From: Eledone cirrhosa
Taxonomy: Eukaryota
NCBI GenBank assembly: GCA_964016885.1
Contig: OZ024743.1
Span: forward strand, 327,794,001 to 327,858,000
Direction of reading: 5' to 3'
Length of the DNA stretch: 64,000 nucleotides
The translations under genes and the position numbers were made by a program. Under the pieces are notes generated by a model. It had not been told where the DNA came from and searched no databases. It worked only from the letters and a program-made list of their open reading frames with translations. Numbering within the stretch: position 1 is the stretch's first letter; each line of letters opens with the position of its first letter. Shown piece by piece: positions 4,420-53,291 of the stretch.

Positions 4420-7400
4420 AGTATATGTTGGTTGTATACCAACACCTCAGAATGCAGATTGGAGCACTCGACGAAGTGTGCAGGTTGGTTTGTTTACTCC
4501 GGAGTAATGTAAAATAAAATAAAATAAATAAGTCAAATGTTTAAAATTTGGCTTCGTTTATTACTGCTATATATATTTCGGTGACAGCCATCTTTGGCTG
4601 TGACCTCTTCAGGCAGTCCGAATTAGTGTGGTAGAGACGAGTACACATGTTGTTGAGGTGTTTAACTTTGTCAATACTCTGATATGCCCAGTTCCTGGTT
4701 GGGTTGTAATTTCACTGAGGAACTGGAATCATATGAATTTAAACAAACGAATCTCAGCGTAAAAGGACCTCTTCTCCTCTCATTGGTCAGTTGTTAGAAC
4801 ATTCCTCAGTCAAAAGTCTATAGAAATTCTTTCTGAGGCAAGGCAATCTGTAGTGGTTGTTCTTGTTATTGTTAGGTATATCTGACCTCTACTCTTATGT
4901 TGGTAGTGGTGTTGTTGTTGGAGTCAGCTCAAAAAAATGATAAAGTGGTAGAAGGAATAAGATGGTAAAGGAACAAAATCAAATAAAATAATCAAATAAA
5001 ATGTGTGTGTGTTATACCCATCTCAATGTTATAAAGATTTGCAAGGTCACTCTTCCCATTGGTTAGTTTTGAGACCATTCCTCAGTCAAAAGTCTATAGA
5101 AATTCTTTCTGGGGTGAGGCTCCCTGTAGTGTTTGTATTTGCTATTGTTAAGTACATCTGACCTCTACCCTTATTTTGGTAGTGTTGTTGGTGTTGTGGT
5201 CAGCCTATGTCTTGCTGCTGCTGACATTTAGAAGTATCTGTGTGTGTGTGTTTCTTCATACCTCCTGCCACCATCTCTCGTGGTGGTGGTGGTGGTGGGG
5301 TGGGGGGGGGGGGGGGGGTTCTGCCATGTATATGAAGAAATAGAAGGCAATAAAATGAAGAAAACAGAAAATAAATAATAAATAGAGAATAAATGAAAAA
5401 TTAATGAAAAAGTAATGAAAAATGAAAATGAAAAGTGAAAAATAAAAATGAAGAGTCAAATAAAATAAAATGTGTGTGTGCTATAACCAATCTCATGGTC
5501 AGAAAGATGGTAGGAGGAACAAGATGGTAAAAGAATAAGACGAAATAGGATAATCAAATAAAATGTGTATGTGTTATAACCAATCTCAACTTAAATATAA
5601 ATATAAGGCGATAAAGTGAAGAAAACAGAAAACAAATAACAAATGAAAAATGAAAAATCAAGTAAAATAAAATGTGTGTGTGTTATAAAGATGTTGGCCA
5701 AATTATAAGGGCTGTGTCAGAATCAATCTCTAGGCTATCATGGTGTCTGCTCAGCCTGGGTTGGTCCCTATGGCTTGAGGGGAGTTCCCAACCTATGATG
5801 TTGTTACTGCCCATATAGCTTGAGGGAGGTCTGTCCGAGAGGTGTCTACATGTTCTGGAGAAGTCCCTATAACTTGAGGGGAGTTCACATCTTATTATGT
5901 TGCTACTGTCCATATATCTTGAGGAAGGTCCCGGCCCTGAGGTGTCTGCATGTCCCGAAGAAGTCGGTTCTGAGGTTTATCAGGCGGCTTCCACCTCTTA
6001 GTATCTCAAGGGTCTCGTTTAGACATAGTTTGCATATGCCAGATCTCCCTTTATGGGGTGGTACTTTCCTGATTATGGACCAGGCCAGAGAGTACGGGGT
6101 CCTGTCCAGCTTAAGCTTCCAGATCAGGTCGGAGAGAGCCGTACTTTTCCTTTTGGCCTCCTTATTGAAGGAATGGCGATGGTTATACCAACGGTCTTTA
6201 AAGCTCGTTGATGTGGCTCCTATGTAGAGGTGTTCGGAGTTGGGGGTTTTAACCCTACATCCGTATATTAGGTTCTTCTTAAGGCATTCATTACTAAGGG
6301 GGCATGATTCGGGGTTTCTGCAGTTGCAGAGGGTGGTCGACCTCTGCGTGCCTAGAGTGGGGTTCCCGTTATGTGTTACATGGTGGTCTTCCCCCAGGCA
6401 CGGTGGGGGGTCTCCGGGTCTGTTTGAGTTTCTTGGGTGGGAACTGGGTCCCCCCTTCTCTCCTTCCATATGGTTCTGCTGGGTGCTTGTATTGCCATCT
6501 TCTGGTTGTGTGTGGTTTTTAATCCTACTCCTGTTGATGGTAGCTATGTGTTGGGCCAGATTTCTCGTGGTGGAATACGAGAGCTTCACAGTGTGTCTGT
6601 TGAAGATCTTGTGGTATCTATGGTCCCTCGGGAAGCATTTATCAAGTGCTCCAAAAAATGATCGGGCCAAGCTGTTCTTTAGGGCCGCTGAGTAGTGTGG
6701 GTTGTACCACGCGATTTTTCTGCGTCTCCTCCTATATGGGTGGGTTGGGGGAGTCGTGAGTTGTTGGAGATTTGTTGGGTTGCTGGTGTTTCACGCACTG
6801 TTGTTTCCCCTTTGGGCGCTATGCGTTTTGCTATCTTCACGGCCCGAATCTGTAGGGTGGTCCCCCTTTACCCCCCCCCCCCCCTCACGTGTCATGCGGT
6901 TGGGGTCATCGGGCCCGGGGTGGTTAACATCACCCCTGAGACTGCTACTCATATTAGGTTTCATCTCATGGTTAAGCGTACTCGTCACCAATGCCCGTGT
7001 GGTGGTGTCGGGCTCGTGGTGCCTATTTGTTTCTGTTATGCCTGTATTGCTAGGGTTCACCCCCTCCCGGACAACGCGGGTCTGGATGCCCGTTGGGCCA
7101 TCCCCATCCCGGCGTTTCGGACTATATGTTATATTTTGGCCATGTGCCGCCTTATTTAGAGCTGCGTTGTAATATGCCGCGTTGTTATCGAAGATTTCCT
7201 TACTTGCGGACAGACTGGAGATCCTGTCCGAGACAGTCTTCACCACGGCCTTGGTTATGGATCTAGGGTGGTTTGACTTGGCGTTAACATACACAAGTTT
7301 CTCGTTGGGCTTGTGGTAGGGGTAGTATTGTTCGGTGTTCAGGTTTAGGGTGGTGTTTAGGAAGTTAACTATCTTTCTATTTGGGTCTAGTTCGATACTG

Positions 7401-8200
7401 AGCCCCTGGTTCTTAAAGAAATAGCGAATACGCCTCCCCATTCCCTCCAACATAGTGGTGCTGTGGTCATATACTGTGAAGAGAGCATCGTCACGATATA
7501 ATCCGCCGCCCAGGCAGGGGATTTTATCTTTTATCTGCTTCAGCAGGAAGAGACCAACCAGGTCCGTTACCTGTGCTGAGTCGCTGGTGCCCATCGTGAT
7601 GTCAAAGTTATTTGGCCAATCACTCCTGGTCCAAAGGTCTCCATCGAAACAGATTAAGGTCTTTTTTGCGGCGTGGATGATCATCACCTCCTCTCGGATT
7701 AGGTCCGTATTGGACATCGCTTAAATAGGGCCTTATTGAGTACTATGGATGAGATTGAGGAGTAGTAGCCTGCAATATCCAGTTGTATAAAGCTGGTCTT
7801 ACTTTTCTCATGTAGTATCTTAAACCATTCTATTACCTCTCCCGTACATGACCATTGCTGTAATCTAGTTTTTTCCGAAGCTTGGGCAAAATCCTATCTA
7901 ATATTCTTTTACTGACGATCCCTAGGTCAGATCTGGAGGGGGATATCAGTCTGACAGGGAGGTCGGACTCAAAGTTTGGCTTGTGATCTTTAAGGGTAAT
8001 CCGCGGCTGCCTTGGTTGGTATGGGGCCGTCCTGTCCTCTATGCCGAGTCCAGATATAATCCTGTAAGCTGTGGCATTGATCTCATCCAGGGTAAATCCA
8101 AGTGTTTTTTTGTAGCACTTCCTCAGTTCCCTGAGAAATTTATGTAGAAGCTTGTATAATTCTTCAGTGGGTGCCCAATAATATTAATATTGATAACCAA
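4420..8200 (-). mobile_element. Penelope-like retroelement, Naiad-type: RT + C-terminal GIY-YIG endonuclease, long 3' UTR/pLTR; frameshifted
   Basis: ORF 6791-7717 (FDITMG..LVGLFLL, GLYRDD, VNFLNTTLNL, SNHP); ORF 5903-6670 (CNCR..CPL..C, IYGC..YIGAT, CKLCL.E, LINLR..CRH); hammerhead at 4563-4617; 3' end abuts (TA)n. Confidence 0.9.
4563..4617 (-). ncRNA. Type I hammerhead ribozyme in PLE pLTR
   Basis: Minus strand reads actgc-CTGAAGA-ggtcacagcc aaagat ggctgtcacc-GAAA-tatat-ATA-gcagt; stem I actgc/gcagt; AATAAA immediately downstream. Confidence 0.82.
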
Positions 8201-8476
8201 ATCAACATCAATATTTAGCGATAATCACTATCAGTGCTTGAGGGAGCTGCTAGGTTGTTAGTCCAGCAGTTCTAAAGAAAATCTCACACTGTCTCGAAAA
8301 TAGGAGGAAGGAGATTACCGCCAAAAAATAATACATGCGCAGGTCAATGAATTCTGAAAAGAATTCAAGCCACGTGCTAGAACTCAATTGGATTTGAAAA
8401 AATAATATATATATATATATATATATATATATATATATATATATATATATATATATATATATATATATATATATAT

Positions 8477-8640
8477 AGTAATAATAATAAATTTGAAGAC
8501 TAAAATCCAAAGAGGGCTCGATAGGATAAATATATATCAAATATATAAGAACCGTAGAGCAAATATTTATTAAAATAACAGATTAAAGTTTAAGCAAAGA
8601 ATCGCTGCTTTCACCCTTAACGGGATCTTCTGAAACTAAC
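8477..8640 (-). mobile_element. PLE pLTR 3'-end remnant with degenerate hammerhead
   Basis: Minus strand cagaaga-tcccgttaagggt-GAAA, then AATAAA, ATCGAGCCCTC motif and (TA)n; rearranged second copy at 13363-13460. Confidence 0.5.
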
Positions 8641-8661
8641 AAAGTCAATCTGTAAACGCAG

Positions 8662-52080: not shown

Positions 52081-52375
52081 TAATAAAAGATGTACAAATA
52101 AAACCGTCTTTCTTATTCATGATATATATAATATATATATATATTATATATATTATATATTATATATTATATATATATGTATATTATGTATATTATATAT
52201 ATGTATATTATATATTATATATATATATATTATATATATATATATTATATATATAATATATATTATATATTATATATTATATATATATGTAAACGATAAA
52301 CAGAAATAACAACACAATCAGTACAGTATATGGAAGGGATATATTAGGTTAATGCTTGATATAGCAGGAAGAGGG

Positions 52376-52411
52376 TCTTAACATTTCGGACGCTAGTCCT
52401 TCATCAGAAGA
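52376..52411 (-). ncRNA. Minimal PLE-type hammerhead
   Basis: Minus strand reads tctt-CTGATGA-a-ggac tagc gtcc-GAAA-tg-TTA-aga. Confidence 0.68.
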
Positions 52412-52509
52412 AAGAATGAGAAATAAGATAGAGGGGATGGGCGGGATGGAATTGGAAAAACTGTCATTAGATAAAAATAACAGGTCCATTCATGTTGACA
52501 ACTCTTGAT

Positions 52510-53122
52510 ATATAAACAAGAAGTGTAAGTCAACGGGTTAAAATAACTTCGTTTATTCATATTTGTTGCAATATTTATTTCCACTATTCAACAGCTATGA
52601 CCTCATCGGGCAGTAAGAACTTGAACAGAAAAAACAGGAAAATATAATGTTGGAATAAATTTTACCTTGTTAATTCATTGATATGTTCAGCTCCTGGGAG
52701 TGTTCCTATCAGGAATTGAAAACATATTATTTAGAATGAACGAATTCTTGCGTCCAAAGGACATACCTTCACCTCATTGGTCAGATATCATATCAACACC
52801 CCAAAAGTCTATTGAAATTCTTTGGTCAGTAGCAGGTCAATCAATATCCCTCTGTTGTGGTGTGAGCAGGTTAATCAATATCACCCTGTTGTGGTAGTAG
52901 TATTCAGGTTGTCAAGAAAGAATTTATATAGGTAAACTGATATGGCTATCACTGAAATATATATTGCAGTGAATATGAATAAACGAAGCTAATTTTAACC
53001 TGTTGACTTACACTTCTTGTTTTTACATTATTCCCGATTAAACAGACCAACCTGGGTACTTCATTGAGTGCTCCTACCTGCATACTGAAGTGTCGGTAAA
53101 CAACCAACACATACTCAAAATT
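52510..53122 (+). mobile_element. Naiad pLTR remnant with inverted 5' copy, related to 4420-4617
   Basis: 52940-53115 aligns with the reverse complement of 4425-4592; 52510-52582 is an inverted copy of 52953-53025; degenerate core ccgatga on the minus strand near 52603-52609. Confidence 0.7.
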
Positions 53123-53291
53123 ATATATAAATATATATATATATATATAAAAGACGGAACTAGCATAGGTATCACTACTAGGACTGGTTGCATCTCCGCG
53201 TATTCAATAGGTAATGTTAAATAAGCTCACAGAGTATATATATATATATATATATAATCATATATATATATCATATATAATCATATATATA

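Follow-up and report, generated by a model that had tools for sequence, protein, structure and literature searches.

A duplicated bulged hairpin lies just downstream of both insertion ends of Hydra-clade Penelope-like elements in Eledone cirrhosa

We analyzed a 64,000-nt stretch of the Eledone cirrhosa genome (GenBank assembly GCA_964016885.1, contig OZ024743.1, positions 327,794,001 to 327,858,000, forward strand; hereafter the window), in which a sequence-only reading had noted a motif, RTYGAGTRCTY, at the (TA)n junctions of Penelope-like elements (PLEs). This motif proved to be the 3' arm of a hairpin with a bulge, NCTC-stem-loop-stem'-T(T/C/A)-GAGN-RCT, the fold of which is supported by covariation. 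Full-length elements possess two copies of this hairpin, termed H1 and H2, between a hammerhead ribozyme and the start codon, and insertions end 5-9 nt before H1 (the short end) or before H2 (the long end). The optional tail of these PLEs is thus the H1-H2 interval. Two-ended insertions join one long and one short end, with arms templated independently. As judged from these sequences, each hairpin probably binds the reverse transcriptase (RT)-endonuclease protein and sets an internal RT start on the RNA, a process that would amount to programmed twin priming.

The NCTC box lies 5' of the motif and pairs with GAGN, after which a stem of 3-6 bp closes past a two-base bulge. An upstream CTC plus stem was found in 15 of 26 family representatives, compared to 5.7 (maximum 12) when the upstream flanks were swapped. 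Varying the bulge from 0 to 4 nt gave 1, 1, 15, 2 and 2 representatives, respectively, with enrichment at the two-nucleotide bulge only. Moreover, a structure-only descriptor yielded 53 matches near TA tracts versus 8 on the reversed sequence, and the hairpin was present in 9 of 88 clusters without a TA tract. Covariation was assessed in 68 distinct hairpins of marine relatives, selected without a pairing filter by taking the closest CTC 5' of each box (absent for 10 of 97 boxes). Watson-Crick pairs at the five stem positions numbered 60, 64, 50, 42 and 33 of 68, compared to 52, 36, 19, 19 and 18 upon shuffling (0 of 5000 shuffles), and the closing pair of the stem varies among G-C, A-T and T-A. 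In the stems, G-T outnumber A-C mismatches by 14 to 4 (p=0.03), which favors the sense strand. RNAalifold returned the same fold on an unfitted MAFFT alignment of 59 sequences, composed of 55 of the 68 marine hairpins and four window sites, with 13 hairpins omitted as mis-registered, near-duplicate or long-looped. This alignment is 93.9% paired (slid controls, 21-54%) and has 83 double changes versus 31.7; the subset flatters the pairing figure, and the 68-hairpin test is the unbiased one. A role of GAGTRCTC as a palindrome or in dimerization was dropped, as its two middle bases are free (TG, TA, TT, CC or CA). Rfam covariance models gave no match over H1 or H2 in the window or in five loci, elements of 30 nt being hard to detect in this way.

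Insertions of the family represented by site 4462 end either ~39 nt before the motif or ~49 nt after it, which places the motif inside the optional tail. In 24 of 40 marine leaders, two boxes are separated by 54-82 nt, so a second hairpin was predicted just past the long end in the host genome, where it was indeed found. Double motifs numbered 693+1,720 versus 156+7 in the control, and 27 of 30 double-motif loci are true H1-H2 pairs from about seven families, mostly family B. The N-terminus of the Hydra-clade protein begins 12-32 nt after H2 in 22 of the 27. Within one element, H1 has ACTC/GAGT and H2 mostly GCTC/GAGC. When 118 TA junctions, from loci not selected for the motif, were mapped to nine references, 46 fell 5-9 nt before H1 and 49 before H2 (together 95/118; TA parity blurs these offsets by 2). 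Offsets of -63 to -70 and of -185 proved to be artefacts (an internal TA run, a duplicate in the reference) and were removed. Similarly, ~11 marine loci end 5-9 nt before a box, and TA is enriched at -6 to -8 before boxes across unrelated leaders. The fixed geometric relation is therefore that of each hairpin to the junction located 5-9 nt on its 5' side. The distance of 35-60 nt from the motif downstream to the TA tract is a by-product, fixed per family because it equals the H1-H2 spacing minus the hairpin length and the offset. The earlier proposal of a shared cis signal stands insofar as a PLE signal is tied to the (TA)n junction; the signal is, however, structured, present in two copies and anchored to the upstream junction, and its recognition by the RT is what we infer.

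The anatomy of the insertions shows how the two ends are combined. Among 30 two-ended units, five have an unclassified end and the other 25 all consist of one long and one short end; 18 of these were unselected, giving p ~3e-6 under independent ends. The 18 long ends of family A are opposed by a short end in 13 cases and by an unclassified end in five (four of which resemble diverged short ends), never by another long end; of its 14 short ends, 10 are opposed by a long end and none by a short one. Exact patterns, which differ in coverage, retrieved 23,720 short and 34,087 long ends of family A genome-wide. The fold-back centers differ between copies, which indicates de novo formation of the units. 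Of six multi-kilobase units, all with arms that meet within 9 nt of each other, four have the longer arm at the short end and two at the tail; since length can favor either side, the two arms are templated independently of one another. Snap-back copying of a single tail-primed cDNA was rejected, as the short-end arm has sequence absent from the tail arm in four of the six units. Most arms of family A extend beyond the predicted cleavage site of a variant hammerhead and terminate in its loop II, consistent with an uncut RNA as template.

Several features of these repeats are recorded here in their own right. The variant hammerhead of family A (locus L016:1360-1470; window 35312-35517) mostly has a TTGA-NAA core and long stems II and III, and its loop II is a hot spot at which tens of thousands of ~190-nt fold-backs stop. 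A 257-nt tandem deletion unit of family A (L265:1094-1813), of retrozyme size, still has H1 and H2, along with the first eight codons and half of the hammerhead. In family B, short tandem arrays with units of ~73 nt (C7:80939156-80939676) and ~135 nt (C3:351148197-351149031) are made up of leader fragments that contain the hairpin.

Judged by the protein motifs that assign the clade, the hairpin marks PLEs of the Hydra clade and not PLEs generally. Intact 892-residue copies of the 4462-family open reading frame (ORF) exist elsewhere in the genome. The 891/892-residue ORFs of this family contain MRWKA at the RWK motif (versus GxKF/Y), ADKTN at the DKT motif (versus DKG), and CNCRNPESC as the CxCX5C linker followed by a C-terminal GIY-YIG domain (IVY..YIG); families B and F have RWR. 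In 23 marine proteins, RWK occurs in 18, DKT or DKS in 20, and the linker plus GIY-YIG in 19. The pseudo-long terminal repeat (pLTR) contains a hammerhead, with a core in the 4462-family copy of the window, a match above the Rfam cut-off in locus L213 and a variant core in the parents of family A, and the elements insert into (TA)n. All of these are features of the Hydra clade as described in PMC8557442, as are the inverted 5'-truncated copy and the optional tail. Compared to that description, in which the tail is 30-40 bp and the unit <3 kb, the tail here is 78-102 nt in the host genome and ~54-82 nt in marine relatives, and the 4462-family unit is ~4.1 kb. Sites 4462, 8512 and 39405 and family A are tied to Hydra-clade ORFs, and no ORF was linked to sites 33907, 44407, 52034 and 53198. 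Family A had been taken as ORF-less, wrongly, as ORF-linked copies exist. A strict hammerhead descriptor found one site, and Pfam did not recognize pieces of the Hydra-clade ORF.

The sequence-only reading had described the motif at dissimilar PLE 3' ends and suggested a comparison with Naiad/Neptune consensus pLTRs; the ORFs linked to it here are instead of the Hydra type. Two other PLE families, one of them Neptune-like at window 17439-19944, have no motif at their 3' ends: the box was found in 0 of 8 Neptune-like 3' regions and in none of one further family (3' ends only, the leaders not being reached). Among 30 PLE loci, the only box was that of a nested family A copy, and Naiad/Chlamys consensi searched with nine 9-mers gave internal matches only. 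The Neptune-like PLE (window 17439-20240, +; loci L301-L308) has an ORF of at least 796 codons, open in many copies, and a 3' untranslated region (UTR) that leads into TG/TA microsatellite-like sequence common to the copies. The further family (window 1003-1185, 42000 and 42176-42385; L130:6674-8700) has a hammerhead, a TA/CA-repeat target, fold-backs and a 3' end without the box.

Protein search revealed 1,833 relatives at E<1e-40 among 8,000 scored, and an alignment of 33 relatives was used to fetch 76 metagenome loci and 16 loci from metagenome-assembled genomes (MAGs). By sequence alone, the box was found in 34 of 40 marine leaders and in 27 of 40 post-hammerhead regions. There are 97 boxes in 13.4 kb of leader and UTR, compared to 10 sense and 25 antisense boxes in 67 kb of ORF. 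With the boxes masked, the 34 leaders fall into 27 non-aligning clusters, and their proteins are a median of 47% identical. In addition, the hairpin was recognized by eye in three of six new consensi of PMC8557442 (Hydra-2_Amil, Hydra-2_Ajap and Hydra-1_Ajap, from coral and sea-cucumber hosts), with two copies at the 5' start of Hydra-1_Ajap; the Hydra-1_Obim consensus ends before any tail. No relatives were found in viral contigs. Hydra-clade contigs within bacterial MAGs (L247-L262) are most likely mis-binned animal host DNA.

Taken alone, the window is weak evidence for the motif, barely above chance: at up to one mismatch it has 19 matches versus 11.7 +/- 3.8 expected, and 4 of 100 shuffles were as high. 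The genome-wide pattern, however, is overwhelming. In the 3.0-Gb, repeat-rich genome, searched with anchored patterns, 68,334 exact motifs (33,887+34,447) are directed at (TA)6 located 35-60 nt away, compared to 73 (35+38) for the reversed string and 3,993 (1,966+2,027) in the opposite orientation, many of which, among the matches listed, represent the distal end of very small fold-backs. Sampling at round-number coordinates gave 800 kb with 47 exact motifs, of which 36 are followed by (TA)5 at 30-90 nt, compared to 7.8% of positions, in agreement with the concentration of the motif beside TA tracts that had been proposed. The coordinates and strands of the ten sites first noted are correct and each site is directed at a TA tract; six match RTYGAGTRCTY exactly and four do not. 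Their near-fixed distance to the tract applies within a family, and across families it spans 30-80 nt; the peak at 44 nt is due to family A alone (sites 35364 and 44584), which dominates the genome count. The instances do not collapse into one family, as 145 TA-proximal sites form 26 clusters, one of which lumps two families. The two pairs of same-family copies were rightly recognized (35364/44584 in family A, and 53063 as a decayed 4462-family copy), to which a third, 44407/52034, may be added, as it looks related upstream by eye. The motif, which marks a minority of TA flanks and not TA flanks in general, did not emerge from k-mer enrichment applied to 466 dereplicated TA-flank clusters.

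We propose that the transcript would read through the pLTR into the leader of the next unit, where two protein copies would bind H1 and H2. The endonuclease would then cut both (TA)n strands, and each DNA 3' end would anneal to the UA immediately preceding a hairpin, from which it would prime cDNA. Joining of the two cDNA ends would leave an inverted repeat of which just one side has the tail. We consider it likely that the hairpins set the RT starts in this manner. More tentatively, at slightly less than even odds, the tandem hairpins might serve as a two-site template guide that loads two telomerase-like RT protomers onto a single uncut RNA, with both (TA)n break ends then primed at programmed internal sites within one complex. 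In vitro, the Poseidon element PAc provides a precedent (PMC11167929): two internal RT starts bound its tail, both strands of an AT-rich target are extended, a dimer is predicted, RNA 3' of the start is required, and hammerhead cleavage is dispensable, as may also be the case here. Its starts are inside the ORF at an AC-rich stem-loop, and no conserved recognition element was identified there; by contrast, the presumed starts of the present elements map to the leader, 5' of one or the other conserved hairpin, with UA microhomology to the target.

The same 5-9 nt geometry would be expected if the hairpins instead directed RNA cleavage at that distance upstream, by themselves, by the element protein or by a host nuclease, giving two RNA 3' ends for ordinary end-primed target-primed reverse transcription. 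The element already has a ribozyme, and RNA-seq read ends occur at the start sites in PMC11167929. However, units with two long or two short ends should then make up about half, and none was seen among the 18 unselected units (p ~3e-6); the hairpin has no match to an Rfam family, and PMC11167929 reported internal initiation on unprocessed RNA, so that we regard cleavage as unlikely.

Alternatively, the hairpin might act on DNA, being recognized by the endonuclease in sense single-stranded or extruded DNA and cut 5-9 nt upstream, to make at least the short end. The tail was ascribed to endonuclease resolution in PMC8557442, and earlier work cited in PMC11167929 found the D. virilis tail necessary for endonuclease recognition of DNA; covariation fits RNA and sense single-stranded DNA alike. 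Nevertheless, the simplest form of this scheme is the snap-back rejected above on four of six units, the freedom of the stem sequences while pairing is kept argues against plain duplex recognition, and the equal offset at H1 and H2 suggests a single mechanism, leaving action on DNA rather improbable. A further explanation, that the hairpins are expression signals (an internal promoter, or a translational operator by the ATG) and that the ends arise from nearby TA microhomology only, draws on the position of H2 12-32 nt before the ATG and on the 34-bp repeat of Penelope, proposed as a basal promoter (PMC2377424). It is very improbable given that, although the AT-rich leaders contain numerous alternative TA steps, 95 of 118 ends are placed 5-9 nt ahead of a box, and that unrelated leaders have TA enrichment at -6 to -8; the hairpin may have an additional role in translation. 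Shared ancestry without function, or chance, is already refuted by the compensatory stems and by the enrichment (97 boxes in 13.4 kb of leader and UTR versus 10 in 67 kb of ORF, in leaders forming 27 non-aligning clusters with proteins at a median of 47% identity), even though all linked families belong to one clade, one family dominates the genome count and the window count is near chance.

Several observations weigh against hairpin-set twin priming. The in vitro precedent of PMC11167929 is from a clade other than Hydra, and among the published consensi (PMC8557442) inspected by eye, Hydra-1_Crog has a GTG variant and Hydra-1_Amil no clear hairpin. Eleven of the 26 family representatives lack the hairpin, some being chance matches or decayed and one family having a one-nucleotide bulge. 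Only 33 of 52 marine hairpins have a predicted pairing probability above 0.5, one host family has low values, and H2 stems in the host genome often have just 2-3 bp above the bulge. The Hydra-type family at window 29613 has no clear hairpin; this copy (29613-31040, +) encodes a Hydra-type endonuclease, and its 3' end is either a short end or an exception. Single-armed copies exist, as at window 4416-8404. Finally, both arms copy the same kilobases, which would fit one RNA template or two, a single one needing strand displacement.

In L1 twin priming, both target strands prime on the element RNA, which gives rise to an inversion, the second site being unprogrammed and the arms not overlapping. 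In the present elements, by contrast, both sites have a set position, and one region is duplicated in the two arms. In telomerase, a sister RT family, a structure in the RNA, bound by protein, sets the short region that aligns with a DNA repeat, and the hairpin may by analogy be likened to the template-positioning elements of telomerase RNA. It also resembles the small sense-strand RNA stem-loop near the priming site of the stringent long interspersed nuclear elements (LINEs) ZfL2-1 and ZfL2-2 (PMC4176376), which was shown to be bound in cis by the element protein; such binding is presumed here. By this analogy the hairpin might work like the stringent-LINE stem-loop, but it fails that layout: the latter is single, lies upstream of a 3'-terminal start and has a family-specific loop (PMC4176376), whereas the present hairpin is duplicated, lies downstream of internal starts, and has a conserved base and bulge with a free loop. 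The elements, tail, hammerhead, (TA)n bias and inverted structure are already known. We found no description of the hairpin, or of the tail as the H1-H2 interval, in the available sections of PMC8557442, PMC4209133, PMC7229834, PMC2377424 and a 2026 retrozyme preprint, in Rfam or in a wider literature search; subscription papers or Repbase reports could note it.

The sites of the window are listed in the table. The upstream box was found at nine of the ten sites first noted; sites 8512 and 53198 have upper stems of 2 bp only, and 53063 is decayed.

Table. Hairpins and associated PLE features in the window (window coordinates).
Feature	Position	Strand	Remarks
Long end of 4462-family copy	4387-4416		TA tract
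H1, Hydra-clade PLE tail	4462-4505	-	ACTC / 6-bp stem / TC bulge / GAGT GCTC
Hammerhead core	4576-4612	-	Upstream of 4462 H1
Hydra-clade ORF, frameshifted, 5'-truncated	5903-8183	-	RT, CxCX5C linker, GIY-YIG; leads into site 4462
H1, second Hydra family	8512-8560	-	Compensatory GCTC/GAGC pair; long end at TA 8405-8477
Hairpin variant, another Hydra-linked family	13085-13108	-	One-nucleotide bulge; newly found
Rfam hammerhead match	28263-28307	+	31.7 bits, below cut-off of 34
H1	28360-28385	+	GCTC/GAGC; downstream of hammerhead match; newly found
H1, 33907 site	33833-33917	+	5-bp upper stem, 61-nt loop
Family A fold-back insertion	35312-35517		Long end left (H1 35364-35391, -), short end right
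H1 of family B	39405-39428	-	Full-length relatives have H2 and Hydra ORF
H1, 44407 site	44389-44417	+	5-bp upper stem
Family A fold-back insertion	44478-44640		Short end left, H1 44569-44594 (+, one mismatch), long end right
H1, 52034 site	52016-52044	+	4-bp upper stem
3' arm of H1, decayed 4462-family copy	53063-53073	+	Upstream box mutated
Degenerate H1-like hairpin	53198-53235	-	Tail-only piece between two TA tracts; weakest site

In addition to the PLEs, the window has an open frame of 997 codons (35891-38884, -) encoding an apurinic/apyrimidinic endonuclease and an RT, assigned to a non-LTR element, with TA tracts on either side. Remnants of Tc1/mariner-like transposases were recognized by eye from translations at 45989-46889 and 53342-54456.

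Penelope-like RTs choose internal starts, and their insertions have an inverted copy and, at one end, a tail; the only in vitro study left the signal for the choice of start undefined. A hairpin of 25-30 nt, present in elements of cnidarian, echinoderm and other marine hosts, together with a 5-9 nt ruler, makes start-site choice testable. The hairpin also provides a tag by which fold-back repeats without an ORF, of which this genome has tens of thousands, can be classed, and it bears on template positioning in telomerase. If the two-site guide is true, one mechanism would account for both the Penelope tail and the inverted-repeat insertion, and the RT could write any RNA bearing the hairpin pair into TA repeats, itself creating both junctions.

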